64,000 bases of DNA from Candidatus Marinacidobacterales bacterium (GTDB taxonomy: Bacteria > Acidobacteriota > Vicinamibacteria > Marinacidobacterales > DATDRI01). Of the stretch, positions 20,676 through 63,715 are shown one piece after another (positions within the stretch are counted from its first letter, which is position 1; each line of letters begins with the position of its first letter). The DNA lies in assembly GCA_965226495.1 (NCBI GenBank), contig OZ245365.1, positions 3,267,516 to 3,331,515 of the forward strand. The letters run 5' to 3'. The notes under the pieces are model-generated. The model was not told the origin of the DNA. It worked only from the letters and a program-made list of their open reading frames with translations, and made no database searches. The position numbers were made by a program, and so were the translations under genes.

Positions 20676-21212
20676 CTAGCTCTCTTCCACGATATCCGGC
20701 TTCAGGGTGCCAATGATCTCGAGAAGCTCTGATTTCTCGGCGGCAGGAACTTTGAATTTATCCAAGGTGTCAACCAAGTGTTGCACCACGATGTTGAATT
20801 CCTTTTCAGTGATGCCGAGTCCACCATGAATGGTCTTGGCTGGCCGGCTGATGATCTTGCAGGGGCCCCCGGTGACGTTGCAGACCAAATTCTTGTTCTT
20901 CTGCCTGAACTGCTGCCTTGTATCATCGCCCATGCCCCTGAAAAACTGGGCAATGCGAGGATCAACAAACAACTTTCCCGCGAAGTCGTCGACCACGGCA
21001 GAAATCGCATCGTACCCGCCGAGCCGCTCGTATAACGATTTTCCCTCATCTGATTCATCTGGAGCCGACGAGCTCTCGACCGCAGACTCCAACAATGGGA
21101 GGCTGCCTTCGACAAGCGACGGCGGAGTCACAAGCAATACGGTTGCTAAGAAGAGCCCCTCACCCAGAAGAAAACTCCTCGTTCTTCTCCAATTTCCTAT
21201 TGCAAACATCAC
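20676..21212 (-). CDS. truncated haemoglobin (2/2 Hb, group I-like) with N-terminal signal peptide
   Basis: LYERLGGYDAISAVVDDFAGKLFVDPRIAQFF...HGGLGITEKEFNIVVQHLVDTL...LKPDIVE matches the trHbN consensus. Confidence 0.85.
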   Translation of the reverse strand: MMFAIGNWRRTRSFLLGEGLFLATVLLVTPPSLVEGSLPLLESAVESSSAPDESDEGKSLYERLGGYDAISAVVDDFAGKLFVDPRIAQFFRGMGDDTRQQFRQKNKNLVCNVTGGPCKIISRPAKTIHGGLGITEKEFNIVVQHLVDTLDKFKVPAAEKSELLEIIGTLKPDIVEES

Positions 21213-43642: not shown

Positions 43643-44768
43643 CTACGACTTGTGCGGGGGCTCCCGCCGGCTCAAGAGAAAAGCCTTCATGAACGGATCG
43701 AGATGGCCATCCATCACACGATCCACGTCGCCGATCTCCTGTTTCGTGCGATGATCTTTCACCATGCGATAGGGCTGAAAGACATAGGAGCGAATCTGAT
43801 TGCCCCAGGCAATTTCCTTTTTTCCATCGTGTAGAGCCTCGATCTTTTCCTGCTTCTCTCGGAGCATTCGATCGTAGAGCCTGGCCCTGAGCACCTTCAT
43901 CGCGATGTCGCGATTGCGATGTTGGGAGCGCTCGTTTTGGCACTGCGTAACGATACCAGTAGGAAGGTGGGTAATGCGTACGGCAGAGTCGGTGACGTTG
44001 ACGTGTTGGCCACCCGCCCCGCTCGACCGGTAGGTATCGATGCGAATATCTTTCTCATTGATTTCCACCTTCACCTCTTCGTCGATCTCGGGAAAAACAA
44101 AGACCGAGGCGAACGAGGTGTGCCGCCTCTTCGCCGCGTCGAAGGGTGAGATACGTACCAAACGATGGACGCCCACCTCACTCGAAAGCAGACCATAGGC
44201 ATAGGGACCGCTAACGGTAAATGTTGCGCTCTTGAGTCCCGCCTCTTCACCTTCCTGATAGTCGAGCATCTCGGCCTTCCAACCCTTTTGCTCGGCCCAG
44301 CGCAGATACATTCTGAGCAACATCTCCGCCCAATCTTGGGATTCCGTCCCCCCGGCGCCCGGGTGGATGCTCACGATCGCGTTTTTCGCGTCGTTCTCTC
44401 CCCCCAGGAGCTTCTGGATCTCGGCGGCCTCGACATCCTGCTCCAGTTTCTCCAGATGCTTCTTGAGCTCTTCCGCAACCGTCTCCCCCTCCTTCGCCCA
44501 CTGGATGAGAGTGCGGACTTCCTCTTCGCTGCCGTTGAGATGATTGATCAGGTCCACGTCGCGCTGAAGGCGACTTCGTTCTCGCGATAACTGCTGTCCC
44601 TGGGCGGGATCGGACCAAACTGCGGGATCGGCCAGCTTTTGTTCTATCTCGGCGAGTGCTTTCTTGACCGCGGCTTCGTCAAAGGTAACCTCGAACGTCC
44701 TCGACCCGACTCTCGATCTTCTCGTACCGCTCTAGCAACTCGTCAACAGTATGTGGCGTATGTGGCAT
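43643..44768 (-). CDS. prfB: peptide chain release factor 2, with programmed +1 frameshift
   Basis: SPGAGGQHVN motif. N-terminal 25 codons in the 0 frame end at CTT TGA C (complement of 44658..44664). The main ORF continues in +1. Confidence 0.9.
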
Positions 44769-48281: not shown

Positions 48282-49052
48282 TCACGAGTCGCTCCCCCGT
48301 CCTGGCGTGAGGAAGGATTGGATCAGATCGATCGGCAGTGGGAATATGATGGTCGAGTTTCTTTCCGTTGCAATCTCGGTGAGGGTTTGTAGGTACCTCA
48401 GTTGTATTGCCATCGGATGCTGTCCGACGATCTTCGCGGCAGCCGCCAGTTTCTCGGAAGCTTCGAATTCGCCGGCCGCGTGAATGATCTTGGCTCGCTT
48501 CTCTCGTTCCGCCTCGGCTTGTTTCGCGATGGCGCGCTGCATCTCCGGAGGCAAATCGACGTGTTTGACTTCCACCGAAGTCACCTTGATGCCCCATGGA
48601 TCGGTGTGTTTGTCCAAGATGTCCTGAAGCTGCATGTTGAGCCGCTCTCGCTCCGAAAGCAGATCGTCGAGCTCCACTTGACCAAGCACACTGCGAAGCG
48701 TCGTCTGCGCAAGCTGCGAAGTCGCATAAAGGTAGTTCTCTACCTCGACCACCGCCTTAATCGGTTGAAGGACTCGGAAGAAGATCACCGCGTTCACCTT
48801 CACCGAAACGTTGTCCCGGGTAATCACGTCCTGAGGGGGTACGTCGAGAGCCACCAAACGGAGGCTCATTTTGACCATCCGATCCATGGGACTGAAAACA
48901 AAGACGAGACCCGGCCCTTTGGGATAGGGCAGGAGTTTCCCGAGCCGAAAGATCACCCCACGCTCGTATTCGTTGAGAACCTTGAGCCAGTTGAGAAAGA
49001 AAATTGCTACAAGAATAAGGCCAATGACATAACCACTCAGCCCGAACGGCAT
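48282..49052 (-). CDS. SPFH/Band-7 stomatin-like protein
   Basis: N-terminal [15 protein letters not shown] and [18 protein letters not shown] stomatin blocks. Confidence 0.85.
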
Positions 49053-49055
49053 TGT

Positions 49056-50378
49056 TCACTCCCTTTCAGTCAAGCTCTCAGAGAAGGGCTCCACTCGGAG
49101 AACGAGCCCATCAATCCTTGTCACTTGAACGCGTGCTCCCTGCGCGATCTTGGCCTGCGAGAGCGCATCCCAGTACTCTCCATGAACGAAGATCTTCCCT
49201 CGCCCGTCGATATCTGTGGAAGCGGTTCCTACCAGTCCGATCAAGCCCTGATCTCCTGTCACGGGTTTCCGCTTCATCGAGATGATAACCAATCGAGCAA
49301 GGAACCCAAACACGACGACGAGTGTCACTACCACCGGAAGTATGACGGTCCAGCCTAGCTGGAGCACTGGAGTCGGCACCGTTTGCTCCTTGAAAAGCAT
49401 GAGAGACCCCAGGATCAGCGCCGCGATACCACCCAGTCCGAGAACACCGAAAGCCGGTGTGAAGGCCTCCCCAATGATCAGACCCATCCCTACTAAGAGC
49501 AAGAGTACACCCGCATAATTGACCGGTAACACTTGAAGCGCAAAGAAAGCCAGAATCAACGAGATGACGCCGATGACCCCAGGCAACACCGCCCCGGGGT
49601 TGGCGAGCTCGAAGTACAGGCCCATCATCCCGAGCGCCATGAGAATGTACGCGACATTCGGGTGGGCGATGACGGAAAGAATGCGTTGCGGCCAGCGCAT
49701 CTCGAATGCGACGACGGTTTCGCCCTTGGTGTTGAGTACCACTTCGTCCCCGTCGAAACGGGTCACCGTCTTGCCATCGAGTTGTTCCAGAAGCTCATCC
49801 TCGGTGCCGGCGATGTAATCGATGAGTCCGACCTCGAGCGCTTCGGTCTCGGTCCACGACTGGCTCTCGATGACGCCTTTTTCCGCAAGCTCGACCGGCC
49901 TACCTCGCTTCGCGGCGATAGAACGGATATAGGCGGCGGCATCGGACTCGACTTTCTTGGACATCGTCTCGTCCATCTCTTGACCGCCTCCCGAGACAGG
50001 ATGAGCCGCACCCATGTTGGTGCCGGGCGCCATCGCCGCCACGTCGGCCGAGAGGGCGATGAGAAACCCCGCCGAGGCGGCGCGTGCACCGGATGGAGCC
50101 ACATAGACAACAACCGGAGTCTCGGCGTTCAGGATCTTTTCGATGATCTCCCGCATCGCAGTGTCCAACCCGCCGGGTGTCTTGAGTTGGATCAAGACCA
50201 GCTCCGCACCATCGCGGTCGGCTCGATCGATGCCTTCCGTGATGTACTGGGCGCTGACCCGATGGATAATGTCGTCTACGGTGAGCTTGTAAATGGGGGC
50301 GGACCAAGCCGGTGCCGCCAGGGTCAGCACGACCGAGGCAAGGAACCCTATGGTTAATCTGTAGAAGAGACTCATCAA
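49056..50378 (-). CDS. NfeD-family membrane-bound ClpP-class serine protease
   Basis: LIQLKTPGGLDTAMREII...VVYVAPSGARAASAGFLIALSAD. C-terminal OB-fold. 4-nt spacing to the stomatin gene. Confidence 0.85.
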   Translation of the reverse strand: MMSLFYRLTIGFLASVVLTLAAPAWSAPIYKLTVDDIIHRVSAQYITEGIDRADRDGAELVLIQLKTPGGLDTAMREIIEKILNAETPVVVYVAPSGARAASAGFLIALSADVAAMAPGTNMGAAHPVSGGGQEMDETMSKKVESDAAAYIRSIAAKRGRPVELAEKGVIESQSWTETEALEVGLIDYIAGTEDELLEQLDGKTVTRFDGDEVVLNTKGETVVAFEMRWPQRILSVIAHPNVAYILMALGMMGLYFELANPGAVLPGVIGVISLILAFFALQVLPVNYAGVLLLLVGMGLIIGEAFTPAFGVLGLGGIAALILGSLMLFKEQTVPTPVLQLGWTVILPVVVTLVVVFGFLARLVIISMKRKPVTGDQGLIGLVGTASTDIDGRGKIFVHGEYWDALSQAKIAQGARVQVTRIDGLVLRVEPFSESLTERE

Positions 50379-50453
50379 AAATGGAAGTATACATTGAGGC
50401 TATGACGAGTGTCAAGGCGTTCTATGCGGTAAGTCTATGAAACAGCGGCCCTT

Positions 50454-52541
50454 GTGGTTCTCACCCCTCGAAAGCCTCGACGTTCAACGGGTCTCGCGGC
50501 ACCCGGGGCGAGCGGCTTGAACCCTCGAGCCATAGCGGCGGTGGTCGGTTTTTTCGCCGCACTAACCTTCATTTTTACGATTCCGCTGAGCCTGCATCCC
50601 GCAGGCCGGGCCTTGGATCTAGGAGCCGATACTCGCCTGTTCCTCTGGACTCTGGCCTGGGACGTTCATGGGCTGGTGAGCCAACCCTTGTCGTTGTTTC
50701 AAGCCAACATCTTCTTCCCCACCCCCGACACGCTCGCCTACTCGGAGCACTTGTTGGGAACCGCGATTCTCGCGGCACCGTGGCTCGCGGCGACCGGGAA
50801 TCCTCTGCTTGCGTTGAATGCGGTGCTGCTCATCTCCTGCGTCGGTGCAGGCGCGGGAACTTACTTTCTCGCTCGTCGAGTCGGCGTCGGCGTGGCCGGT
50901 GCCCTGGCCGCCGGCGTCATATTCGCCTTCGCACCACCCCGCTTCTTCCGGCTCGGGCAAGCTCACCTGGCGGTGGTACTTTGGATGCCCCTCTGCTTGG
51001 GTTTCCTACACACATATGCCGCAGGGGGCTCCCGAAAACACCTCTTGGCGGCGGTGGCTTTCTTCACACTTCAAGCGCTCTGCGGAGGACAACCGGGCTT
51101 GTTTCTCGCGTTCGCCGCAGGAGGATTCCTGCTGTACGCGTGGGTCTTTGGCTTACTGCGACCTCGGGGAAGACTTCTCGCCGACTTCGGTCTGGCGGCC
51201 GTACTCGTCATCGCTGTGAACGTGCCTTTCTTCCTCCCCTACCTCCGTGTGCAGGAAGAGTCCGGCCTCAGCCGATCGCTAGACGAAGCACGAGAGTGGT
51301 CCCCCAATGCCGCCAGCTTTCTCGCCGCGCCCACGCACATGCAACGACGCCTACTCTCGATCATTCCGGGACTCGAGCGTCGCATCATGGGTACCGCCCG
51401 GGCATACTTGTTCCCAGGCTTTCTGGCATTGGCTCTCGCACTGGTGTCCCTTCGACGGGTGCAAGAGGGTTCTCCGGTGGCCAAGCGTGCGCCACCACCT
51501 GCGCAGACTGCCCAGGGAGGGCCGGCGCGTTGGCCAGGTTGGCCAGGTTGGGTTGTCGCGCTAGACGCCTTGCTCATCGTGTCCGCTCTCATCACCTTGT
51601 CCCTCGTAATCACAGGAGGGGTTCGATGGCAGGTGGGAGGCGTAACGATCTCGGCCCGCGGTGCCGGGAGAGCGGCGCTCGTCTTGGTCGCCTTGTCGGG
51701 ACTACGCTTGGCGCTCGCCGGTCGAAGCCCGTTCGCATTCCGGGAACTGTATCGACGACTCGTCGCGCGAGTGCGGATAGAGTGTTCATCCCGCGTGGGT
51801 ATTCAAGCCGGCTACTACTTCTTTCTCGCCGTCTTCTCTTTGTGGATCGCCCTCGGGCCCAGCTTCGGCCTATACGCAGCCTTTTACCGACTCGTGCCAG
51901 GCTTCGACTTCATTCGAGTCCCCTCTCGATTCACGTTGCTGACTGTTTTGAGTCTGGCCGTTCTCGCCGGTGTCGGATTGGAGCGACTTCTCGGTAGCGT
52001 ACGCGCGAGTCGACGCCGGCTGCTCGCCCCGGTGACGGTCGCGATTCTGGGCTTTCTGCTTCTGGAATTTGCAGCGTTCCCCCTCGATGCTCCACCCTAC
52101 TCGTTCGCGATCCCGCCCATCGATCGATGGATCGCTCGCGAGGCCCAACGTTCAGGCCCCTTCGCGGTGGTCGAGCTTCCGGTCCCGGATCCGAGAGATA
52201 CCGCCGCCTCCGCACGCTGGCACTCGCTCTACATGTTGCACTCAACCGCGCACTGGCAGAAACTCGTCAACGGCTACAGCGGTTTTACACCACCCACTCA
52301 CGACGCGCTCTTTCGTAAACTCGTCAATTTCCCAGATGAGGCCAGCATTGGTGCGCTCGAACAAATGAGCGTGCGCTACGCGGTCATTCACCGGGATGCG
52401 TTTGACGAGGATGGGTGGCAAGAGGTGAAGGAAAAGCTGGAGGTTTTCGACGGCCGATTGCGACTAGAGGCCGAGGAGGAAAGCGGGCTGGCCTATTCTC
52501 TTACTCGTTCGAAGACGAATCCACCTGATCATGAACCGTGA
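50454..52541 (+). CDS. large polytopic membrane protein, possibly a GT-C-like glycosyltransferase
   Basis: 695 aa. Many TM segments in the N-terminal two thirds. Soluble C-terminal domain. Family not recognised. Confidence 0.45.
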   Translation: MVLTPRKPRRSTGLAAPGASGLNPRAIAAVVGFFAALTFIFTIPLSLHPAGRALDLGADTRLFLWTLAWDVHGLVSQPLSLFQANIFFPTPDTLAYSEHLLGTAILAAPWLAATGNPLLALNAVLLISCVGAGAGTYFLARRVGVGVAGALAAGVIFAFAPPRFFRLGQAHLAVVLWMPLCLGFLHTYAAGGSRKHLLAAVAFFTLQALCGGQPGLFLAFAAGGFLLYAWVFGLLRPRGRLLADFGLAAVLVIAVNVPFFLPYLRVQEESGLSRSLDEAREWSPNAASFLAAPTHMQRRLLSIIPGLERRIMGTARAYLFPGFLALALALVSLRRVQEGSPVAKRAPPPAQTAQGGPARWPGWPGWVVALDALLIVSALITLSLVITGGVRWQVGGVTISARGAGRAALVLVALSGLRLALAGRSPFAFRELYRRLVARVRIECSSRVGIQAGYYFFLAVFSLWIALGPSFGLYAAFYRLVPGFDFIRVPSRFTLLTVLSLAVLAGVGLERLLGSVRASRRRLLAPVTVAILGFLLLEFAAFPLDAPPYSFAIPPIDRWIAREAQRSGPFAVVELPVPDPRDTAASARWHSLYMLHSTAHWQKLVNGYSGFTPPTHDALFRKLVNFPDEASIGALEQMSVRYAVIHRDAFDEDGWQEVKEKLEVFDGRLRLEAEEESGLAYSLTRSKTNPPDHEP

Positions 52542-53004
52542 GGAGCTTCGTGATCTCGAAGGATTTGGCACCGGCGGGAGTTTGGACGGTGACTTCATCG
52601 CCCTCTTGTTTGCCTAACAGTCCTTTTCCAATGGGTGAGGTCGTGGAGATGAACCCACGCTGCACGTCGGCCTCTTCGCTCATCACCAGTCGGTACACGA
52701 CGTTTGCTTTTTTCTCGATCTCGTAGAGATGGACTTCCGAGCCTAACGAGACCCGATCCCGTGGAATCTTGCTCATGTCGATCATAGACAGCTCGCCCAG
52801 TCGCTTGCGAAGTTGGCCGAGTCGCGCGTTGACGTAGCCTTGGCGCTCCTTGGCGGCGTCGTATTCGGCGTTTTCGGAAAGGTCGCCGTGCTCGCGAGCG
52901 ATCTTGAGCTCCCTGGGAAGCTGGACGTGGAGCTCTTCTTCGAGCGCCTTGATCTCTTCTTTGAGTTTCTCGAGAAAATCTTGTTCCATGGCCGGGTCGC
53001 CCAT
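52501..53004 (-). CDS. greA: transcription elongation factor GreA
   Basis: Coiled-coil N-domain and a C-terminal FKBP-like domain matching GreA. Converges on and overlaps the 3' end of the membrane-protein gene. Confidence 0.85.
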   Translation of the reverse strand: MGDPAMEQDFLEKLKEEIKALEEELHVQLPRELKIAREHGDLSENAEYDAAKERQGYVNARLGQLRKRLGELSMIDMSKIPRDRVSLGSEVHLYEIEKKANVVYRLVMSEEADVQRGFISTTSPIGKGLLGKQEGDEVTVQTPAGAKSFEITKLLTVHDQVDSSSNE

Positions 53005-53044
53005 GTTAACACATCGCGGAACGCCAATCCCGCCCCGTGGTAGC

Positions 53045-53860
53045 ATGGCGGGCAGGTCGCGCAACATGAAAACCCTGGCCAGCCCGGAAAACCCGCTCAT
53101 CAAGACGATACGCCGCCTTCGGCAACGGCCCCACCATCGCGGGGAGGACCGATTCATGCTCGAAGGCGTCAAGCTGGCGAACGAAGCGCTCTCCTCCGGT
53201 ACCGAGGTCCTGCACGCCATTCTGTCCGCCGACTTCAGCGACAGCTCGAGTGGACGCAAGCTTGTCCGCCGGCTGGAAGCTTCGGGGGTGCCCTCGGTCT
53301 CGGTAGACGAAAGCCTTTTCCGGCGCTGCAGCAGCTTGGAAGCGCCGGAGGGCGTGTTGCTCCTAGCAAAACGAGACCCACGACCGCTCCAGGAACTTTC
53401 TGGCGATCTGATCGTGGTCAGCACGGGGGTGCAAGACCCGGGCAACCTGGGGGCCATCGCGCGAGCGGCCGAGGCGGCCGGCGCATCGGCGCTCGTCGCC
53501 TGTCGTGGCAGTGCCTACCCTTTTCATCCCAAAGCGGTCAGAGGGTCGATGGGTAGCTTGCTGCGACTCCCCGTTTTCGATGGCGGCGATGCGGACACCG
53601 CAGTCGTCGCCCTCAAACAGAAAGGCCTCTCACTAGCGGCTTGCGTCCCTCGTGGGGGATCGGACTTCCGAAGCGTCGATCTGAAAAAGGATTTGGCTTT
53701 GATGCTGGGAAGTGAAAGCGGCGGTTTGCCCGAAGAATTAGTACAAGTGTCGGACCTGCGCCTATCGGTGCCTATGAAAGATGGTGTGGATTCGCTCAAC
53801 GTGGCGGTGGTTGCGGGGCTCGTACTCTACGAAGCGGCACGCCAGCGAGGAGTCATATAA
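53045..53860 (+). CDS. TrmH/SpoU-family RNA 2'-O-methyltransferase
   Basis: SPOUT motifs LIVVSTGVQDPGNLGAIARAAEAAGASALV and LMLGSESGGLPEEL...PMKDGVDSLNVAVVAGLVLYE. Confidence 0.8.
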   Translation: MAGRSRNMKTLASPENPLIKTIRRLRQRPHHRGEDRFMLEGVKLANEALSSGTEVLHAILSADFSDSSSGRKLVRRLEASGVPSVSVDESLFRRCSSLEAPEGVLLLAKRDPRPLQELSGDLIVVSTGVQDPGNLGAIARAAEAAGASALVACRGSAYPFHPKAVRGSMGSLLRLPVFDGGDADTAVVALKQKGLSLAACVPRGGSDFRSVDLKKDLALMLGSESGGLPEELVQVSDLRLSVPMKDGVDSLNVAVVAGLVLYEAARQRGVI

Positions 53861-53862
53861 CC

Positions 53863-55212
53863 GTGAGTCAGCCCGGACTCTTCGCCGATCCGAAAGACAA
53901 ACACCCTAAGTCTTTCGATGCCCATACGCCGCTCGCGGAGCGTATGCGCCCTCGAGACCTCGACGAGATATTGGGGCAGGAGGAAATCGTGGGGCCCGGG
54001 GCTCCCCTTCGCGCCGCGATCGACAATGACACGGTGGGTTCGTTGCTCTTGTGGGGTCCCCCTGGCTCTGGAAAAACCACCTTGGCTCGTGTCGTTGCTC
54101 ATCGCACCAAGGCCTACTTCGTCCCCTACTCGGCCGTACTTTCCGGGATCAAAGAGATTCGAACCGTCATGCAGGACGCGGAACGCCAAAGGAGACTCCA
54201 CGGTAAGAAAACAATCTTGTTCGTTGACGAGATTCATCGCTTCAACAAAGCACAGCAGGACGCCTTCCTCCCACACGTCGAGTCCGGTAACGTCATCTTG
54301 ATCGGAGCGACCACCGAAAATCCCTCGTTCGAAGTGAACGCGGCGCTATTGTCCCGCTGCCGTGTCGTGATCCTGCGACAACTGGAGCCCAAGGATCTCG
54401 TAGAAGTGATGCGACGAGCCCTAGCCGACAAGGAAAGGGGTTTTGGTGCTCGTGAGATCGAGGTCGAACCCGACGCGCTCGGCTGGCTAGCGCGGCAGGC
54501 GAACGGGGATGGCCGGTTCGTACTCAACGTGCTCGAAGTAGCGGTTGCCGCAAAACCTAAGGGAACGATCTTGCTCGGGGATCTCGGGAGGGTCGTCCAG
54601 CGAAAAGCGCTGCTCTACGACAAGAGCGGCGAGGAGCATTTCAACATCATCTCGGCGCTTCACAAATCGCTCCGCAATTCTGATCCGGACGCCGGGCTCT
54701 ACTGGCTGGCTCGCATGCTGGAGGCCGGCGAAGATCCTCTTTATGTGGCGCGCCGGTTGGTTCGTTTCGCCTCTGAGGATGTGGGGCTCGCGGATCCCCA
54801 GGCGCTCTCGGTGGCAATGGCGGCGAAGGAAGCGTTTCATTTCATCGGACCACCGGAGGGGAAATTGGCCCTGGCACAAACCGTCGTCTACTTGGCGACC
54901 GCACCCAAGTCCAACGCTATCTACCGTGCATATGGAGAGGCCGCCGATGACGCGCTCAAGGAAGCCACCGAGCCGGTTCCGTTGCAGTTGCGCAACCCGG
55001 TGACGAAACCAATGAAGAGTTGGGGCTACGGTCGAGGCTACCAGTACGCGCACGACTTCGAGGAGAAAACGACCGACATGGAGTGCTTGCCGGAAAGTCT
55101 AGCCGGCAAGGTCTACTACCATCCGAGCGATGAAGGCTTCGAGGGAGATTTGCGGGAGCGTATCAAAACCGTACAGAAAAAAAGAAAGAAACTGAAAAAG
55201 GAATCGCAGTAA
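53863..55212 (+). CDS. rarA: replication-associated recombination protein A (AAA+ ATPase)
   Basis: LLLWGPPGSGKTTLARVVA Walker A. FVDEIHRFNKAQQDAFLPHVE. C-terminal MgsA domain. Confidence 0.9.
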   Translation: MSQPGLFADPKDKHPKSFDAHTPLAERMRPRDLDEILGQEEIVGPGAPLRAAIDNDTVGSLLLWGPPGSGKTTLARVVAHRTKAYFVPYSAVLSGIKEIRTVMQDAERQRRLHGKKTILFVDEIHRFNKAQQDAFLPHVESGNVILIGATTENPSFEVNAALLSRCRVVILRQLEPKDLVEVMRRALADKERGFGAREIEVEPDALGWLARQANGDGRFVLNVLEVAVAAKPKGTILLGDLGRVVQRKALLYDKSGEEHFNIISALHKSLRNSDPDAGLYWLARMLEAGEDPLYVARRLVRFASEDVGLADPQALSVAMAAKEAFHFIGPPEGKLALAQTVVYLATAPKSNAIYRAYGEAADDALKEATEPVPLQLRNPVTKPMKSWGYGRGYQYAHDFEEKTTDMECLPESLAGKVYYHPSDEGFEGDLRERIKTVQKKRKKLKKESQ

Positions 55213-55288
55213 TTTCCGCGACGGCGCACTTGATTTCGAGCGTCGTTCCAGTTACACACTCGTCCCATTCGAGAGACGGAGGGCCTTT

Positions 55289-55900
55289 ATGAAGAGATTC
55301 GGTAAATCAAACCTCGCCATCGCGATCGCCGCGCTGGCCGTAATCCTGACAGTTGCGAGTGCCGAGGCTCAAGGGTTACTCAAGGTCGGCGACAAGGCGC
55401 CCGACTTTCCGAACCCATTACCCTCGACCGCAGGAGAAAAACCGGCCGAGACCAAGATTCAGATGTCCGACTTCCTCGGGAAAAAGAACATCGTTCTCGC
55501 TTTTTACGTTGCTGACTGGACCGGTGGGTGAACGCTGCAATTCTCGTCCTACAAGGACGACATCCGGAAGTTTCTGGATGCGAACGCCCAAGTCCTGGGA
55601 GTCAGCACCGACTCCCCGTTCTCTCAAGCAAAATGGTTGGAAAGCGTGGGGTTCACGAGCAAGGACACACGTGTAACGTCGTCCGGCGACTCACTGCCCG
55701 GACTGATCCTGCTTTCCGATCGAAATGCGGATCTCGTCAAGGCCTATGCCGTGGACACTTATGATATTGATGGCGGTGTTTATGCGAAGCGAGCGACGTT
55801 CGTCATCGACAAAAAGGGGATCCTTCGCTACGTGAACTACGAGTATAAGGTCAAGGAAGACTACGAGCCTCTAATGAAGGTCCTGGCGGAGCTCGATTAG
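55289..55900 (+). CDS. BCP/PrxQ-type peroxiredoxin with in-frame UGA (putative selenocysteine) at the peroxidatic position; secreted
   Basis: One reading frame is continuous from 55289 to 55900 except for a TGA at 55529..55531. Context FYVADWTGG-U-TLQF aligns with the PrxQ motif FYPKDFTPG-C-TTE. Downstream VLGVSTDSPFSQAKW and thioredoxin-fold blocks are in the same frame. Confidence 0.6.
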
Positions 55901-55918
55901 GCGACCTCGGAAAAAACG

Positions 55919-56647
55919 GTGGAAGTACCCAAGGAGGTGCGCCTCATCCGCCTCGAGTGCGGTAAGGCCAACGCCATCGACCTACGTCTGCTAGAGACGC
56001 TGAAGGATGGGCTCGAGGCTGCCCGCGCCGATGGTGTACGAGCGGTGGTTCTCACCGGCTACGATCAGTTTTTCTCCGCCGGACTCAATTTGAAGAGCCT
56101 CCCCGACTCGCGCGAGGGGATGACCGACTTCGTCGAAAAGTTCGAGGGCGGGCTGCGTCATTTGCTCACTTTCCCGCTTCCGGTGGTCGCGGCTATCAAT
56201 GGCCATGCTATCGCCGGGGGATGCGTCTTCGCTTCGGCGTGTGATCTGCGCCTCGCAGCCGAAGGCTCCTACAAAATCGGTTTGTCGGAAGTGGATGTGG
56301 GACTTCCTTTCCCTGGCTTGGCTCTCGCCGTTATGAAAAGTGCGATTTCCAACCGCTGGTTGACCGATTTAGTCTTGGGCGCTCGTTTGGTGAGCCCCCG
56401 CGAAGCAACCGAGGTCGGCATTGTGCACGCCGTCATCCCGCCCGAGGGGTTGCTCGATGAGGCGATCGCCCGGGCGCTACGATTAGGGGCGAAACCGCAG
56501 CCCGCCTTTCGGTTGACGAAGGAGGCAATGCACCGAGACTCGATCGAGCGAGTCGAGGCGGTCGCGGGCGAGACGCAAAAGCATTTCCTCGATTGCTGGT
56601 TTTCGGAAGCAGTGCGAGAGCGGCGGGCGGAACTCTTGAAACGCTAA
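55919..56647 (+). CDS. enoyl-CoA hydratase/isomerase (crotonase) family protein
   Basis: AAINGHAIAGGCVFASACDLRLAAE oxyanion-hole segment. Confidence 0.85.
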   Translation: MEVPKEVRLIRLECGKANAIDLRLLETLKDGLEAARADGVRAVVLTGYDQFFSAGLNLKSLPDSREGMTDFVEKFEGGLRHLLTFPLPVVAAINGHAIAGGCVFASACDLRLAAEGSYKIGLSEVDVGLPFPGLALAVMKSAISNRWLTDLVLGARLVSPREATEVGIVHAVIPPEGLLDEAIARALRLGAKPQPAFRLTKEAMHRDSIERVEAVAGETQKHFLDCWFSEAVRERRAELLKR

Positions 56648-56666
56648 ACGAGTTTGGGCTTGCTGC

Positions 56667-57242
56667 CTATTCCAATTTTTCACCGAGTCGGTCGAGCTCT
56701 GGCTGCAGTTCCTCGAGCATTTCCTGAAACGGGGTACGGTTGGCCGCTCCTCCCACCGGGGCGGGGACCATGTCGAAGGCGGCGGTCGTTAGTAGGCCCT
56801 TCAACTGCGAGCGCACCGCGTCGGGGAGTCCGGTGAACTGAACTCCGTGAAGCACCGCACCCACCACCGGATCCTGCGAGCCTTCTGCCTCGCCGCTCCA
56901 GACGATGTGCCCTTTGGTCTCGAAGACGCCGAGCCGGTCGAGGCTGACCTTGAGATCGACTCTCCAACCCTTTTTCAGCAGCAGATCCGTAATAAAGCAG
57001 GCGCCCGACTCAGAGAGATCGCGGACGACCCCACAGCCAAGGGGAAAGCCGTCTTCATTGACGGCGACAGTGACAGAGTGGTTCGGGACGAATCGCCTTG
57101 CGGCGCGAGGGGGGCTCTCCTCGATCTTCGAGCTCAGGATCTCATTGAGTTTTGAGACCTCGGAAAACGTATCGAATATGGTGTTGCGACGGCAGCGGCG
57201 GTTGCGCTTTCGCCACGTTGAAACCCGTTTAAGTCGTCGCAT
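56667..57242 (-). CDS. PilZ-domain protein
   Basis: GCGVVRDLSESGACFITD...VDLKVSL PilZ pattern. Basic N-terminal tail. Confidence 0.6.
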   Translation of the reverse strand: MRRLKRVSTWRKRNRRCRRNTIFDTFSEVSKLNEILSSKIEESPPRAARRFVPNHSVTVAVNEDGFPLGCGVVRDLSESGACFITDLLLKKGWRVDLKVSLDRLGVFETKGHIVWSGEAEGSQDPVVGAVLHGVQFTGLPDAVRSQLKGLLTTAAFDMVPAPVGGAANRTPFQEMLEELQPELDRLGEKLE

Positions 57243-57497
57243 CGTCCAGAGTTACTGAAGGGGGAAATTACGGTATTCCAACCCGTCCGGGAAGTCAAGC
57301 TGTGTTCCTGGCCATGTATCCCCCCTTATTTGCGGCCCCCCGGAGGTACCACCCATTTGCCACCCATTTGGAGGACAGCTGGACGGGGCCACCGTTTTGG
57401 GATACATATCCTGCCGCACACCGCTAAAAGGGTGTGCATAGAAAACAAACATTCCGCTAATCACCAATTAATCATCAATTCCAAAGGAGAACAGAAG

Positions 57498-58397
57498 ATG
57501 CTCCGCGACCCATTACTCCTCTGCACTTTGTTGGTCCTGGGTTTCGCTCTCAATAAAGGTCGGCCGGCCCGCGCACAGGTCATCAGTCTGAAGGAAGCGA
57601 TCAACCTGCCCAAACCCCCGCCCGACCATCGGATCCCATACGGGGATGATCGGAATCAATTCGGAGACCTACGACTACCAGAGGGAGATGGGCCATTTCC
57701 CGTGGTCATTGCTATTCATGGTGGTTGCTACCAAGCAAAGTACGATCTCACTTTGCTCAGTAGCTTTTCTGCAGATCTTACAGCGGCGGGCTTTGCAACT
57801 TGGAATCTCGAGTATCGCCGCGTCGGAAACGAGGGTGGCGGATGGCCGGGTACCTTCGAAGACATCGCTCGCGGATCGGACTATCTCCGGGTCGTGGCGC
57901 AAAACTACCCGATAGATTTAACCCGCGTGGTGGCCGTTGGTCACTCTGCGGGCGGGCACTTTGTCGCGTGGTTGGCCGCTCGATCGCGTCTCCCCAATGA
58001 CAGCGTTCTCTATTCGGAAGATCCAATCTCCCTTCTAGGCGTTGTGCCGCTCGCGGGTGTCATGGACTCGCGTGCTGACCTCGAGGGTGGCGTCTGCGAG
58101 AAGGTAACGCCCAAGATGCTCGGCGGCCTACCCTCCGAAGTTCCCGATCACTACGCCCAAGCCTCCGCAATCGAGCTCCTGCCGATCGGCATACCGGTAC
58201 GGTCGATCATCGGAGACCAGGACGGTCCCGTACTGATTGACATGGTCAAGCGCTACGACGAGAAGGCAAGGGCAGCGGGCGACGATTCCGAGCTATCTAT
58301 GGTCGAAGGAGCAGGGCATTTCGAGCTGACCACGCCTGATAGCTTCGCGTGGGAGCTCGTGAAGGAAACCGTGCTTTCGCTCTTCGAGCCGAAATAA
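57498..58397 (+). CDS. secreted alpha/beta-hydrolase-fold esterase/lipase
   Basis: HGGC oxyanion motif (VVIAIHGGCY). GHSAGGH nucleophile elbow. Signal peptide. AAGGAG SD 7 nt upstream. Confidence 0.8.
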   Translation: MLRDPLLLCTLLVLGFALNKGRPARAQVISLKEAINLPKPPPDHRIPYGDDRNQFGDLRLPEGDGPFPVVIAIHGGCYQAKYDLTLLSSFSADLTAAGFATWNLEYRRVGNEGGGWPGTFEDIARGSDYLRVVAQNYPIDLTRVVAVGHSAGGHFVAWLAARSRLPNDSVLYSEDPISLLGVVPLAGVMDSRADLEGGVCEKVTPKMLGGLPSEVPDHYAQASAIELLPIGIPVRSIIGDQDGPVLIDMVKRYDEKARAAGDDSELSMVEGAGHFELTTPDSFAWELVKETVLSLFEPK

Positions 58398-58421
58398 ATC
58401 GCGGGCTGAGGGCGTCGAGTT

Positions 58422-58670
58422 TTATTGGGTTGCGGGAGGCCCGATCAACCGTCGGACGAAGGACTCTGCCCGATCGAGCGCCTCTTTGGAAACGGGACCG
58501 TGAAACTCGAGACCCAGAAACGGTCCCGCTCCCTCGACGGTGACAGTCCAATCCCCACCATGGCTCACCGCGACCAGGGCGATCTCGCCGTCCGGAACCC
58601 GCAAGGTCCTCAAGACGCTCAGACCATCCTCAAGAACTTTTTCGCTCGAGTACACATCGGGAGTCGACAT
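58422..58670 (-). CDS. hypothetical small protein (82 aa) downstream of the STAND gene
   Basis: Same strand as the STAND NTPase, 225 nt downstream of it. No recognisable motif. Confidence 0.3.
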   Translation of the reverse strand: MSTPDVYSSEKVLEDGLSVLRTLRVPDGEIALVAVSHGGDWTVTVEGAGPFLGLEFHGPVSKEALDRAESFVRRLIGPPATQ

Positions 58671-58895
58671 TTTTCGCCTCCTCTCGTACCAGCCTTCCTG
58701 GCACTCCTAGCTCCAAAGGTAGCAAGAACCGTTCCCGATGCTAATTCGTTGATTCTAAACACGCAGGCATCTGGAGGCTGCCATTGTTTGACGCCCCGAC
58801 CTCCCAAAATGTGTGAACCTTGTGACGCGTGATAAGGAATCCGCGTGCGGGGGATCACAATCGATCAAATAGGTGTACCTAGTGGCGGCGGGACA

Positions 58896-61622
58896 CTAGC
58901 TGGCTTTGATGCGTGCCAGCGCATCCTGGGCGGCGCGCGCCACATCAGGATCGGATTCTTTCGCCGCGGATTGGAGCAGCGGGACGCTACTGTAAGAGCG
59001 CAAGTTTCCAAGTCCGATGAGCGCTTGAACTCGCGAGGCGAGGGCTTCGTCGGCGGCCGCCCGCTCCAACAACCCGACGGCCCATGAGCCACCCAGCGAT
59101 TCCAAACAGAGACAACCGATGCGCTGATGGATCGCCCCGTCGCTTCCGAGCGAGCGCTCGATCGCACCGTGCAAGCTGGCTGCCGCAGAGTCCGCGGAAA
59201 GCGCCTCCCGGTAGCACTCGGACGCTAGAACGAGATCGCGTTCGAGAAGGCCGTTCACCAAATCGGAGCTGTCTTCCAACATCCCACTGAGGAAAGCGAG
59301 CGCACCATGAAAAGGACCTCGCTTGAGATTGTGGGGACGATCATCTAGCGAGGAATCGTGTATCCACTCGGCGGCGTCGACAAGCTCGAGTAACTCGCTG
59401 GTGCTATTCGACCGGAGGGCGTAGGCAGTCAGAAACTCCTGGATGGCAACGTTCGGGAACGAGAACGCGTGCGGACCTCTTAGCAATCTCGTTTTGCTCA
59501 ATGCCGCAAGCAGCTCTTCTGAGCTGGTACGGCCGAAATGGCTATCGAACCAATCCTGGGGTTCGCTCATCTCGCCTTCGAGGTGCTCGCGTCGAAGCGA
59601 TGTTCTACCCGCACCACTCATCCGAAGGGCAAGTGCGGGAAGAACAATTTCCCTGATCTCCGAGGAGAGCGACTGACCCGCTACTTGGTAAAAGGCCGCG
59701 TAGAGGCCGCTCCGAGTGTAAGGAACGCTCGAGCCCTCCCGCCAGAGTCGCCGCGCCATCGCCAACACCTGGGGGTTTCCGCCTCGGGAACCCATGGCCT
59801 GCAAGAGCTGCCGATACAGGACCCGAGCCTGCTCGACCCTCATCGCCTCGCCTTCCACGAGGAAATCGGCCGCTTCCCATTCGGCGAAAGGGAGAAGCTC
59901 GAACCAGTTCGGAATGTCGAGCGACAGCGGTACCGGCCTCCGCGCAGCAGCGACGAAGCGGTTCAAGGAAAATCGCTGCATGAAGGTGTTCAGCTTCTCG
60001 GTCAAGCGCCTCGAGGAGTCAGCACTCATTTCGTCCAAACCGTCCATCAGGAAGAGGAACCGACCCTCCTCGAGATCACTCAGGAAAAGCTTTCGGTCGA
60101 ATCCTTCTCCGACGAAATCCAACAGCTCTGCCCCGGCTGGAAGATCAGAGAGGCTCACATAAACCGGAAGAGGCGACTTGGCACTGTAGGAAAGAATGGG
60201 TTGGGCAGAGTCGTAAAAGAGCTTGAACAACGTCATGCTCTTGCCCGCGCCGGGCTCTCCCAACACCAGCAACCGCTGAAAACGGCGGGCAAGCTCCGGG
60301 GCGTCTTGAGGCTGCCCGAGGAAATCGGCTGCGTGAAGGTAGGATGACATCGGGTCTTGACGCGGCATCCATTTTAGGAGCTGGTGCGCGTAGCGCTCGG
60401 GTTTGGGCCATATTCGATTCAAGGTCTCTCGGAGCCGGCGGCGATAACGCCCCTCCGAAAGCTCGTACACCTGGCGAACCCGCTCCCCCGCCCGACTGTG
60501 GAAGACCGCGGGATCCTTCTGCGAGACGAACAGTGCGGGTGCCAGCCATGCGCTTTCGAGTGGAAAGAAGGATCCCAATTCTCGCCGGGCTTCGGAAAGG
60601 CACGCGTCGACGGGCTTGAGAGTCGCAAGGGCACGGTAGAACGACTCCGCGAATCGGACGGCCAAGTCTTCCGGCCTCAAACCGCCCAAACTCACTAGCG
60701 CCGGAACGTGTTCCAGCAGCTGCCCAGCAAGCTCCGGGCCCACACCGACCACGCCCTCACCGCCGCTGAATACCATCAGGCGCGGGCTTCCGTCTTGAAG
60801 GAGGCTCACCAGCTGCGCCGGCGTGTTGAACTCACTACCACCGTCCGCGTGAACCAGTCCTATCTTGGCTTCACCAGAGGTCCAGCGACTCGACGCCAGC
60901 AAATGCAAGACGTCCACGTTGCGCCGCACGAGACCATGCAGCCGATCCCGCGTGAGACCGTCCTGACCGATTGCTCGCCCCTCTTCCTGCACCGAGACCA
61001 GCCCTTCTCCCTCCAGGCGACGGAGAGCTTCGCGTATGGCGACCGCCTCTTGACGGATCCGGGGAGCATCTCGTTCATCGGAAAACTCGGCTGCGAGAAG
61101 TACTTTCAGTGGGAGTTCGAGGGGAACCGAAGCCGGCTCTTTGGCGTGCTCTACGAAACGAACAAGCGTCGTTTCGGGAGAATTCCCGAGGAAGGCAGCC
61201 CGACGGGTATCGTAGAGGCACTCCCAAGGCAGACGAGCGACGTTCGGGGGATCGATTTTGAGTCGAATGAGCAGCCGAGTTTCGGTGGGGCGAGTCTGCT
61301 CGCGAAGGTGGATGTAAAGCCGCAGGAGGTCGCCTTGGAACAAGGAGTCGAAGAGCCTGGCCCCCACATATTGGAGCTCTTCGGGGTTGAGCTCGTCAAG
61401 GGTGTCGACGTAGCCAACGAATCGCGGGTCGTCGAAGGGCATGTGGATCTGCACCGGTGGCGTCGAACGGCCAAACTCATCCCAACCCACGGCCGAATAA
61501 AAGCCGGGTGTCGGGTCCGTCCATACCGCTATTAGAAGATCCTGGTGCTCAAGCTCCCTCATGTTGTTCTTCCCGGCGCGCCAAGAAAAGGACCACAGAG
61601 AAACCGATCCCTGCGAGGACAC
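58896..61622 (-). CDS. STAND-class NTPase: CHAT-like (probably inactive) - NACHT - HEAT repeats
   Basis: CHAT-like block VDVLHLLASS...PRLMVFSGGEGVVG (His kept, Cys position is Gly). Walker A LVLGEPGAGKSMTL. Walker B FLFLMDGLDEM. C-terminal HEAT/PBS-like repeats (ALIGLGNLRSYSSVPLL...DPDVARAAQDALARI). Confidence 0.7.
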   Translation of the reverse strand: MSSQGSVSLWSFSWRAGKNNMRELEHQDLLIAVWTDPTPGFYSAVGWDEFGRSTPPVQIHMPFDDPRFVGYVDTLDELNPEELQYVGARLFDSLFQGDLLRLYIHLREQTRPTETRLLIRLKIDPPNVARLPWECLYDTRRAAFLGNSPETTLVRFVEHAKEPASVPLELPLKVLLAAEFSDERDAPRIRQEAVAIREALRRLEGEGLVSVQEEGRAIGQDGLTRDRLHGLVRRNVDVLHLLASSRWTSGEAKIGLVHADGGSEFNTPAQLVSLLQDGSPRLMVFSGGEGVVGVGPELAGQLLEHVPALVSLGGLRPEDLAVRFAESFYRALATLKPVDACLSEARRELGSFFPLESAWLAPALFVSQKDPAVFHSRAGERVRQVYELSEGRYRRRLRETLNRIWPKPERYAHQLLKWMPRQDPMSSYLHAADFLGQPQDAPELARRFQRLLVLGEPGAGKSMTLFKLFYDSAQPILSYSAKSPLPVYVSLSDLPAGAELLDFVGEGFDRKLFLSDLEEGRFLFLMDGLDEMSADSSRRLTEKLNTFMQRFSLNRFVAAARRPVPLSLDIPNWFELLPFAEWEAADFLVEGEAMRVEQARVLYRQLLQAMGSRGGNPQVLAMARRLWREGSSVPYTRSGLYAAFYQVAGQSLSSEIREIVLPALALRMSGAGRTSLRREHLEGEMSEPQDWFDSHFGRTSSEELLAALSKTRLLRGPHAFSFPNVAIQEFLTAYALRSNSTSELLELVDAAEWIHDSSLDDRPHNLKRGPFHGALAFLSGMLEDSSDLVNGLLERDLVLASECYREALSADSAAASLHGAIERSLGSDGAIHQRIGCLCLESLGGSWAVGLLERAAADEALASRVQALIGLGNLRSYSSVPLLQSAAKESDPDVARAAQDALARIKAS

Positions 61623-61782
61623 AAGTGCGTCATTCTTAGGAGTTTGCGGTGCTTGTTACACCATTTTGAGTTATTTGTCAAGCTGTGCGGCAGAAGGCCT
61701 TTATTTTCAACGGAATCCACTGTGCCACGTGGGTACTCTGTGGCTCATGAGTGGCGGCCTCGCACCCGCCTGATGGACGTAG

Positions 61783-62562
61783 CTATCCCTTGAAATTGGC
61801 CTGCAGGATGTTCATCCGGTAGTCGTCGCCTCCCATTTGGACATCTCTGCACATTTCGTAGAGTCGCGAACGAAGACGAGAAGTGATCCTCTCCGACAAG
61901 GTATATTCTTCGGTCGGCGGCCGTTTGCCGAACCCGGGGGCCGGCGCGGAGCGAGCCGCGACCCGACGGTCTGAGAAATTGGTTGTGATGACGGTGAGCT
62001 TCTTTTCGTTGTACCGGTGGTTCAGGATATAGAAGAGCGTATCGAACACCCACAGCGTCGAGTTTTCCCCACCGAGATCGTCGAGCACCAGCAGCTCCGA
62101 TTCGAGTACCGGTTGCAAGACTCCCATCTCCGTAACCGAAGTTTCCGGACTATACGATTCCTTTATCTCCCGCAGCAAGGAGCGGAAATCGGCGAAGCGA
62201 GTCCTGGTCCGAATACGTCTCTCCACGAGCACGCGCCTGCAAATGGCAACGGCGAGATGGGTTTTCCCAACCCCGGGAGGACCGCTAAACAAAAGACCGG
62301 CCTCGTTATCCGGGAACTCGTCGGCCCACTTTCCGGCAATCTTGCAGGCCTGGGCCAACTTAGGGTGGAGCAGCTCGAAGGGCTTTCCTCCACTCCGTTC
62401 ATCAAACGCACAGTCGCGATACCGAGAGGGGACCCGGGCCTTCCCCATCGCGGAGCCGGTGGTGTCACCCAACCAACAATCGCACCGCTCTACCCGAACG
62501 ACACCGTCCCGTTCGGCTCGCCTCCACGACGTGCCATCACAAATCGAACAAGGTTCGCTCAA
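61783..62562 (-). CDS. DnaC/IstB-family AAA+ ATPase with an N-terminal zinc ribbon
   Basis: CSICDG...CDCW zinc ribbon. SRYRDCAFDE. Walker [15 protein letters not shown]. Walker B LLVLDDLG. TTNF sensor. 4-nt overlap with the upstream sigma gene. Confidence 0.7.
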   Translation of the reverse strand: MSEPCSICDGTSWRRAERDGVVRVERCDCWLGDTTGSAMGKARVPSRYRDCAFDERSGGKPFELLHPKLAQACKIAGKWADEFPDNEAGLLFSGPPGVGKTHLAVAICRRVLVERRIRTRTRFADFRSLLREIKESYSPETSVTEMGVLQPVLESELLVLDDLGGENSTLWVFDTLFYILNHRYNEKKLTVITTNFSDRRVAARSAPAPGFGKRPPTEEYTLSERITSRLRSRLYEMCRDVQMGGDDYRMNILQANFKG

Positions 62563-63416
62563 TTGAGGAAACCTCGCATGGCTTGGGCTGTGTTCGAGCG
62601 ACGCAACTTTGCGATAGCCTTCGATTCGATCTGCCGAATCCTTTCCCGCGAAAGTTGCAGCCGATCCCCAATTTCCTGAAGGGTCTGCGGCTCCTCGCCG
62701 TCCAGGCCGAAGCGAAGTCGGACGACTTCTGACTCTTTGGGACCGAGCTCGGTCAGAAGTTTTTGGATCTGCGCCAGGAAAGACTTCTGAATCAGCGCCA
62801 CCTCAACCTGGGGATCGGTCCCCTGCTCCAAGTGGTCGCTCAACTCGAGGTCTCCGTCCTCGCCCAACGTTTCCGATAGTGAGACATCGCTGCCGGAGAT
62901 AGCGATAAAGGTGTTCACCGCGTCGAGCGAAATGTCGAGAGTCGCAGCTACTTCTTCGGGAGCCGGCGTGCCCTTGTCATCTTTGTCCGCCTTAAACTCG
63001 CGTTCGATCCGACTGAAGGCCGTTGCCATGCGTGACGGGACGCTAAAGACGCGCTTGTGCTCGGAGACCGCTTGAATGATGGATTGTCGAATCCACCAGA
63101 CCGCGTAGGAAATGAATTTGACGTTGCGGTCCGGATCGAATCGACGCGACGCCTGCATCAATCCCAAGTTCCCCTCGTGAATGAGGTCAAAGAATGACAG
63201 CCCCAAACCTCTGAAGCGTTTCGCATAACTCACACCAAATCTCAGGTTGCACTCCACGAGCCTTCGGAGCGCGTCCTCGTCCCCTTGCCGAATTCGGCGT
63301 CCCAGCTCTTTCTCCTCCTCTGGAGTGAGGCGAGGAAACTTGCCGATCTCACGTATGTAGTAGCCGAGCGTTTCCGCGTCGTCGGATGAAAACCCCCATC
63401 CACGTGCGACCGGCAT
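62559..63416 (-). CDS. sigma-70 family (RpoD/RpoS-like group) RNA polymerase sigma factor
   Basis: Regions 1.2 to 4 are present: YIREIG, FDLIHEGNLGLMQASRRFD, ISYAVWWIRQSI, TLQEIGDRLQLSRERIRQIESKAI. The start is uncertain (63416 or further upstream). Confidence 0.8.
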   Translation of the reverse strand: MPVARGWGFSSDDAETLGYYIREIGKFPRLTPEEEKELGRRIRQGDEDALRRLVECNLRFGVSYAKRFRGLGLSFFDLIHEGNLGLMQASRRFDPDRNVKFISYAVWWIRQSIIQAVSEHKRVFSVPSRMATAFSRIEREFKADKDDKGTPAPEEVAATLDISLDAVNTFIAISGSDVSLSETLGEDGDLELSDHLEQGTDPQVEVALIQKSFLAQIQKLLTELGPKESEVVRLRFGLDGEEPQTLQEIGDRLQLSRERIRQIESKAIAKLRRSNTAQAMRGFLN

Positions 63417-63715
63417 GGCCCGATCATGCCGCAGGTGGGCCGGTCTGGGCAAGGCCTGTCGGGCCACGTACTCGTCGCAAGTTTTCACCCTTTTGTAAGG
63501 AGGGAAGTGGGGCATTCTCCCCTTTTTCATGAAGGGACAACAGTGTGGGAGTGTGCTTGTTTTGCCTGGTGCGCCGACAACATAGCCTATCGCTCTTCTT
63601 AGTTTAGTGTCCGCGCGTTTCCTGCCAAGACAGCGAGTGAAACGGGTTGGTAGGCCGAGGGACGGCCCAAGCAAGGAGACCGAGATAAATCGGTACCCCT
63701 AGGCGTCCTCAGTTG

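Follow-up and report, generated by a model that had tools for sequence, protein, structure and literature searches.

A predicted selenocysteine-containing peroxiredoxin with tandem hairpins 3' of a conserved in-frame UGA in marine Acidobacteriota

We asked whether an in-frame TGA that interrupts a peroxiredoxin (Prx) gene of a bacterium of Candidatus Marinacidobacterales marks a broken gene or a site of selenocysteine (Sec) insertion. The gene lies at positions 55289-55900 of a 64,000-nucleotide stretch of contig OZ245365.1 (assembly GCA_965226495.1), which is the whole stretch of DNA analysed here and is called the window; all coordinates are window positions. A first, sequence-only reading had proposed a secreted peroxiredoxin of the BCP/PrxQ type, with Sec at the catalytic position and candidate Sec insertion sequence (SECIS) hairpins behind it. 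From comparative sequence analysis we conclude with high confidence that 55289-55900 is a functional gene for an exported, BCP/PrxQ-like peroxiredoxin of the AhpC/TSA family, with one predicted Sec and no Cys. The reading frame, the family, the kept UGA, purifying selection downstream of it, constraint on the hairpins at the RNA level and the use of UGA as an ordinary stop are all directly supported by the analysis. The gene has the following parts.

55289..55900, + strand: complete predicted selenoprotein gene of 203 sense codons, residue 81 being the Sec, and built in the same way in orthologues
55278..55282, + strand: Shine-Dalgarno-like GGAGG, read from the sequence, 6 nt 5' of the ATG at 55289
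55289..55369, + strand: predicted signal peptide, residues 1-27 (MKRFGK, a hydrophobic core and AEA, then QG)
55520..55522, + strand: codon of Thr78 in the TxxU active-site motif (WTGG-U)
55529..55531, + strand: UGA for the predicted Sec81 at the peroxidatic position, placed by alignment to the Cys of homologues and of Bcp structures in the PDB
55790..55792, + strand: codon of Arg168, the conserved catalytic Arg of peroxiredoxins, placed by alignment to Cys homologues, 2ywn and 3hjp

The frame on the + strand from 55289 to 55900 is interrupted only by the TGA at 55529-55531, as had first been read, and terminates with TAG at 55898-55900. The peptide around the stop reads ...NIVLAFYVADWTGG-*-TLQFSSYKDD...

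Such an arrangement could be a pseudogene, a Cys-containing peroxiredoxin broken by a sequencing error or by a recent nonsense mutation from TGY to TGA. Two observations fit this explanation: the window holds no sel genes or tRNA-Sec, and gene callers split the gene in every locus. Its orthologues speak otherwise. Genome and metagenome scans, together with exact-protein look-ups, brought the orthologous DNA loci to 16, counting the window itself along with L001-L004 and L162-L172. The named hosts are Candidatus Marinacidobacterales/Marinacidobacterium (class Vicinamibacteria) and one metagenome-assembled genome called 'Acidobacteria bacterium' (L003), the rest being metagenome assemblies. TGA occupies the same codon in 16/16 loci and is followed by 121-128 conserved codons per locus, with the exception of L168, whose contig ends 16 codons past the TGA. 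A search with the 80-residue N-terminal fragment returned 227 proteins at E <= 1e-3. Among the 120 that were listed, every one is 52-113 residues long and has the C-terminus FYVADW[T/S]GG or a one-residue variant of it. One homology match, a 113-residue protein ending in ...FYVADWTGG, comes from a contig that has TGA at that point and then the conserved frame.

Selection acts alike on the two halves of the gene. Pairwise ratios of nonsynonymous to synonymous divergence (dN/dS) were 0.10-0.29 at dS 0.4-1.5 on the 3' side of the TGA and 0.08-0.26 on its 5' side, which upholds the early impression that the downstream half is conserved in frame. No Cys-containing orthologue was found in a collection of 5.8 billion proteins, where the best full-length homologues are at most 45% identical. 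At the Cys/Sec column the orthologous loci have TGA, and homologues TGA or TGY. TGA stands in all 16 loci, 120 distinct protein clusters imply it too, and dS between the sequences reaches about 2. With the low downstream dN/dS, and with frameshifts, further stops and Cys orthologues all absent, the conservation data already refute a pseudogene, and we give this explanation next to no probability. Four further codons stand out in the alignment. The ACG directly 3' of the UGA is identical in 13 orthologues and differs only in L168 (ACU), and the codons of K65-K66-N67 (AAA AAG AAC, 55481-55489), ~40 nt 5' of the UGA, are degenerate yet identical in 13 orthologues.

The same alignment bears on the idea of a split enzyme, in which translation would yield two polypeptides, one of the N-terminal 80 residues and one from a start of its own in the C-terminal part. 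Gene callers do give separate C-terminal open reading frames (ORFs) of 55-102 amino acids with weak Redoxin matches. Against this, the first in-frame start codon lies 35 codons past the TGA, and the residues between the two are conserved as protein, with synonymous variation. Because no restart is available there and the residues are conserved, these codons must be translated by read-through of the UGA. Furthermore, the predicted restart sites vary among orthologues, and the catalytic residue would be lost from a split enzyme. We therefore regard two separate polypeptides as extremely improbable.

Is UGA read as a stop elsewhere in this genome? TGA terminates 18/38 of the Pfam-supported genes in the window and is the commonest stop. 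The window also encodes release factor 2 (RF2; prfB at ~43643-44750, - strand), with its SPF and GGQ motifs and a classic CUU-UGA-C +1 frameshift site near 44684. An alternative genetic code with UGA as a sense codon is ruled out by these two findings, and recoding at 55529-55531 must therefore be local. In prfB itself, the first frame ends ...RGYL and then UGA (CTT TGA C), the next frame runs into the PCRF/RF-1 domains, and the ORF listing and Pfam recover only the 304-residue downstream part.

We then turned to the residue that the TGA replaces. With Cys put in at the TGA position for profile searches, the joined protein matches the AhpC/TSA family PF00578 over profile positions 1-124 of 124 (E 2.9e-26, 92.3 bits against a cut-off of 26) and also matches Redoxin in Pfam. 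The closest solved structures are the archaeal (Sulfolobus) Bcp peroxiredoxins 2ywn/4g2e, 3hjp and 3drn, and homologue records carry the name 'peroxiredoxin Q/BCP'. The TGA column is that of the peroxidatic Cys in 2ywn, in 3hjp and in 40 Cys homologues, so that the placing of the stop on the catalytic Cys was borne out by the alignments. In 2ywn and 3hjp the catalytic Arg lines up with the segment KRATFVID, and Arg168 (R141 in mature numbering) is invariant in an alignment with 29 Cys homologues. Thr or Ser at -3 of the peroxidatic residue (W-T78-G-G-U81 in the window protein) is found in 120/120 of the listed fragments. The match to the active-site motif had been called one of residue for residue, which overstates it: Val stands in place of Pro, and three other positions differ. 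Sec and Cys alternate widely at this column: in the retrieved loci, the peroxidatic codon of more distant homologues is TGA in 47 cases and TGY in 40.

On sequence grounds the closest subfamily is BCP/PrxQ. The earlier assignment to it stands as far as the nearest relatives are concerned and falls short at the resolving Cys. Cys homologues carry C-TKEM-C, the BCP-type arrangement CP-x4-CR of peroxidatic and resolving Cys. The second Cys is lost in Sec forms, and the window protein accordingly lacks the Cys at +5 (CxxxxC), reading U-TLQF-S86. No NCBIfam model reaches its cut-off for the joined protein. The BCP equivalog NF006960 scores 50.9 bits against a cut-off of 140, and the top NCBIfam match is PrxU (NF040737, E 1.4e-15) with 57.6 bits against 270. 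PrxU had been cited as an example of the kind of protein encoded here; since the score lies so far under the equivalog cut-off, orthology to PrxU is ruled out for the window protein.

Two hairpins had been noticed directly behind the UGA, and both were found at these positions.

55544..55560, + strand: hairpin 1, with a 7-bp stem and a 3-nt loop ACA, -8.4 kcal/mol, beginning 12 nt past the UGA
55561..55580, + strand: hairpin 2, with an 8-bp stem and the loop AGUU, -9.7 kcal/mol, 37 nt from UGA to loop

The hairpins directly abut, fold together at -19.1 kcal/mol and constitute both the minimum free energy (MFE) and the centroid structure. Their pairs form with probabilities of 0.81-1.0, and z is -2.4 relative to dinucleotide shuffles. 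A foldable element is thus present, as the sequence-only reading had asked of a SECIS. Hairpin 1 keeps an invariant stem across the 16 orthologues, apart from a closing pair that alternates between U-A and U.G, and its loop is ACA, AUA, AUC or ACC. Hairpin 2 has the loop [A/G]GUU in 16/16 (GGUU in L169), and the sole change in its stem, between G.U and A-U, arises through a non-synonymous Arg/Gln change. We compared synonymous variation in degenerate codons with an invariant amino acid between the hairpins (codons +5 to +17) and the rest of the gene. Across five sequences, 11/12 such sites were frozen under the hairpins and 13/51 elsewhere (p = 3.7e-5); across 13 sequences the figures were 8/9 and 6/57 (p = 4.3e-6). 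Codon bias was considered as the cause and ruled out, because the frozen codons include the non-preferred TTT (27%), GAT (41%) and CTG (25%). This shows that the hairpins are constrained as RNA.

The published consensus for bacterial SECIS elements (bSECIS) has a loop of 3-9 nt on an upper stem of 4-16 bp (PMC13188914, Fig. 2 legend), a G within the first two loop positions that is usually followed by G or U, a distance of 16-37 nt from UGA to apical loop, and an MFE of -7.5 kcal/mol or lower (PMC13188914). Hairpin 2 agrees with it on 4/4 counts (4-nt loop on 8 bp, GU in the loop, 37 nt, -9.7 kcal/mol). Hairpin 1 agrees in everything except the loop G (3-nt loop on 7 bp, 19 nt to the loop, -8.4 kcal/mol). 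The proposal of candidate SECIS hairpins is thus sustained for hairpin 2, which fits the whole consensus, and fails on the loop G for hairpin 1. From its sequence, hairpin 2 is most likely the core of the SECIS that SelB would bind, and hairpin 1 is probably a structured spacer or an accessory part of it.

Structure at this site is a property of the wider family as well. Folding just 3' of the codon is more stable in Sec-type than in Cys-type genes (mean z -1.8 vs +0.3, p about 1e-9), and each Sec subfamily has its own hairpin, beginning 13-15 nt past the UGA. In the Terriglobia-type hairpin three pairs show compensatory double changes, with a covariation score reached by 0/500 shuffles.

Several results weigh against Sec insertion at this locus and have to be set beside this evidence. 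At the active site, the Pro at -7 of the motif PxxxTxxC is replaced by Val74 (FYVADWTGGU); this Pro (P47) is near-invariant among Cys homologues, and Val or Ile stands there in many Sec forms. Hairpin 2 lies at exactly the upper limit of bSECIS spacing, 37 nt, and hairpin 1, though better placed, lacks a G in its loop, which makes the SelB-binding element ambiguous. No double compensatory changes were seen in the hairpins of the clade among the 16 orthologues, because these are so conserved over the hairpins. As to the machinery, none of the ~48 ORFs of the window has a Pfam match to SelA, SelB or SelD, and neither the window nor L001-L004 yielded a tRNA with ARAGORN. A tblastn search of 173 sequences (2.04 Mb) with E. 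coli SelA, SelD and the C-terminus of SelB gave no match. Scans of the window and the clade loci for an open frame, a TGA and a further open frame, with and without a SECIS-like hairpin, yielded no second selenoprotein gene, the remaining hits being out-of-frame noise. The absence of sel genes from the window had been pointed out from the start and was borne out by Pfam, tRNA and Rfam searches of the window. Rfam gave no match at gathering thresholds, and a permissive scan of 55480-55640 returned only a meaningless opposite-strand hit to Acido-Lenti-1 (11.8 bits vs 37). Acidobacteria do include known users of Sec (PMC1794560 Table 2, PMC12013277 Table 2).

These gaps leave some room for read-through that does not depend on SelB, in which a near-cognate or suppressor tRNA would insert Trp, Cys or Gly, the hairpins would stimulate the event and the product would contain no selenium. 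The sequences searched showed no Sec machinery, hairpin 1 is without the SECIS loop G, and some JGI gene calls give Trp at these TGAs, though this is a gene-calling artefact. Such read-through must nevertheless be squared with UGA as the commonest ordinary stop and with an RF2 under UGA-dependent autoregulatory frameshifting. The codon falls on the catalytic Cys column, where activity is expected only with Cys or Sec and where the two alternate widely across the family. The invariant GU loop of hairpin 2 is typical of SelB ligands (PMC13188914), and biochemical work on another bacterium has established a Sec-containing peroxiredoxin (Sohling et al. 2001, cited in PMC13188914). We consider SelB-independent read-through very unlikely, and Sec insertion remains the reading that we prefer.

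What kind of enzyme would result? The N-terminus of the window protein reaches a maximal Kyte-Doolittle hydropathy of 3.12 over 11 residues. A hydrophobic N-terminal region is present in 118/118 clade fragments whose presequence is 15 amino acids or longer; 103 have a small-x-small site, and 6 look twin-arginine-like. The signal-peptide call is a heuristic from hydropathy and the small-x-small site, and the secretion first suggested for the window protein thus finds its features throughout the clade. Cys is entirely absent from the window protein and from 13/16 orthologous reading frames. Because a signal peptide is present and Cys is absent, we infer that the protein is best described as an exported 1-Sec peroxiredoxin.

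In the mechanism that we propose, translation would initiate at the ATG at 55289, and the in-frame SECIS 3' of the UGA at 55529-55531 would recruit SelB with Sec-tRNA(Sec), so that Sec81 is inserted in competition with RF2. Hairpin 2 (55561-55580, 8 bp, loop [A/G]GUU) would most likely act as the SECIS core, and hairpin 1 (55544-55560) probably as a folded spacer that brings hairpin 2 near the ribosome. The 27-residue signal peptide would then drive export of a mature protein of ~176 residues, in which the Sec81 selenolate, placed by Thr78 and Arg168, would reduce peroxides and be converted to the selenenic acid. As the resolving Cys is absent, an external thiol or a thioredoxin-like reductant would have to recycle the enzyme. 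A more ambitious version holds that the SECIS is bipartite and goes beyond the one-hairpin consensus, with an invariant, G-less proximal hairpin as a folded spacer or a platform near the ribosome and an [A/G]GUU hairpin stacked on it at 37 nt. It would serve an obligately Sec-dependent and Cys-free peroxiredoxin that is exported to the periplasm and recycled there by some reductant, more like a glutathione peroxidase than a 2-Cys Prx. This version we put forward only tentatively and think somewhat doubtful.

The gene sits in a conserved neighbourhood, with one gene close behind it.

55919..56647, + strand: enoyl-CoA hydratase/isomerase-family (ECH) gene (PF00378, E 8.7e-44), 18 nt 3' of the Prx gene

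The ECH gene follows the Prx gene in every gene-listed locus that reaches past Prx (L001, L162-L167, L170-L172). No terminator-like site was found between the two, the promoter and terminator scan being otherwise uninformative, and they are probably co-transcribed. The gene order, broadly conserved, is NfeD, Band7, GreA, SpoU methylase, MgsA, Prx, ECH and PilZ. Synteny between window 48282-63674 and L162-L165 and L170 further includes a BD-FAE hydrolase, a CHAT/NACHT protein, an IstB_IS21-like ATPase and a sigma-70 factor. The IstB-like gene (61783-62562, - strand) is syntenic in several genomes and is therefore unlikely to belong to a mobile IS21 element. A GreA-family gene (- strand) lies near 52501-53457 and is found in orthologous loci between an unknown protein of 630-695 residues and the SpoU methylase. 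The SpoU ORF itself (52850-53860, + strand, 336 amino acids) is probably over-long at its 5' end, as orthologues have 245-264 amino acids. Elsewhere in the window are a cytochrome P460-domain protein of 401 residues (17026-18231, - strand), a truncated-globin-family protein (20676-21212, - strand) and a pair of DUF7714 and phosphosulfolactate synthase (ComA) genes (368-2125, + strand).

Taken together, these results identify the window gene as a previously unannotated marine acidobacterial branch of the known Sec-Prx family, with a modest structural variant of the SECIS. In public data the clade amounts to >200 sequence clusters, recorded either in pieces, as truncated 'hypothetical proteins' alongside 'Redoxin' orphans, or with Trp where Sec belongs. 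Six JGI-sourced entries named 'peroxiredoxin' (P0015, P0016, P0019, P0033, P0107 and P0110) have Trp at the Sec position (...AFTGGWTKEL...); the gene caller apparently read TGA as Trp, and these are Sec forms in the guise of full-length proteins. No papers were found in the literature under the name 'Marinacidobacter'. A model built for this clade would pick up what is a core, syntenic gene in marine Vicinamibacteria. For the widespread marine Acidobacteriota of the clade, the sequences suggest that extracytoplasmic peroxide defence depends on selenium, given the predicted export. The protein would also be a natural example of a Cys-free, single-Sec peroxiredoxin, and the tandem hairpins, with a canonical loop at the extreme of the spacing range, offer a natural test case for how far SelB reaches from the ribosome. 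Current understanding is left standing: Sec-peroxiredoxins and in-frame bacterial SECIS elements are already textbook matter.

Among known systems, PrxU of Eubacterium acidaminophilum (the model NF040737) is a cytoplasmic protein of an anaerobic Firmicute. It shares Sec at the peroxidatic position with the window protein, which differs in scoring below the equivalog cut-off. The BCP/PrxQ proteins (E. coli BCP, PRK09437; Sulfolobus Bcp 2ywn, 3hjp and 3drn) provide the nearest structures and the named homologues; in contrast to them, the window protein has Sec for the peroxidatic Cys, Ser86 at +5 and a predicted export signal, and its clade carries an insertion of ~20 residues relative to the Bcp structures.

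The SECIS elements of E. coli fdhF and fdnG are likewise stem-loops within the frame just 3' of the UGA, and their small apical loop contains GU. The mini-hairpin bound by SelB in E. coli begins 11 nt past the UGA, about where hairpin 1 begins (12 nt). Unlike in E. coli, the GU loop of the window gene is on the second hairpin, and the element has no Rfam match.

The Sec-Prx family (pfam00578 / COG1225, with TxxU) is an established selenoprotein family (PMC13188914, PMC1794560, PMC1088965, PMC2398784) whose motif is TxxU (PMC13188914, PMC2398784). The earliest biochemical demonstration came from Eubacterium acidaminophilum (cited in PMC13188914). Sequences of the family number 43 in the Sargasso Sea (PMC1088965) and 253 in Global Ocean Sampling (GOS) data (PMC2398784), genome surveys count 91 such selenoproteins in 78 organisms (PMC5029168), and Cys has been converted to Sec repeatedly in evolution (PMC1794560). 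With this family the window clade shares the AhpC/TSA domain, Sec at the peroxidatic site, widespread Cys homologues, a SECIS-like hairpin 3' of the UGA and marine abundance. It differs in its signature FYVADWTGG-U-T[L/R]QFSSYKDDI, its place in marine Vicinamibacteria (Ca. Marinacidobacterales) and its lack of annotation in the databases searched, and also in the Val for the motif Pro, the signal peptide, the absence of Cys and the tandem-hairpin SECIS region.

A further related system is the Terriglobia-type Sec-Prx (FY[VI][LK]AFT[GP]G-U-TKELKAYQADI), with ~40% identity, the same Sec column and signal-peptide-like N-termini. Its genes often come as tandem pairs. In Terriglobia and other soil Acidobacteriota the paralogues FYIKAFTPG-U and FYVLAFTGG-U lie ~650 nt apart, each with a TGA and a GGC-loop hairpin (at 641/1308 in L007, 9473/10130 in L012, 9387/10130 in L017, 10130/10758 in L031 and L117, 2566/3236 in L085 and 1619/2297 in L106). 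The Terriglobia-type gene has one hairpin from 14 nt past the UGA, with a GGC-containing loop at 23 nt, a bulged U and compensatory changes, whereas in the window clade two hairpins abut and the loop that contains G comes at 37 nt.

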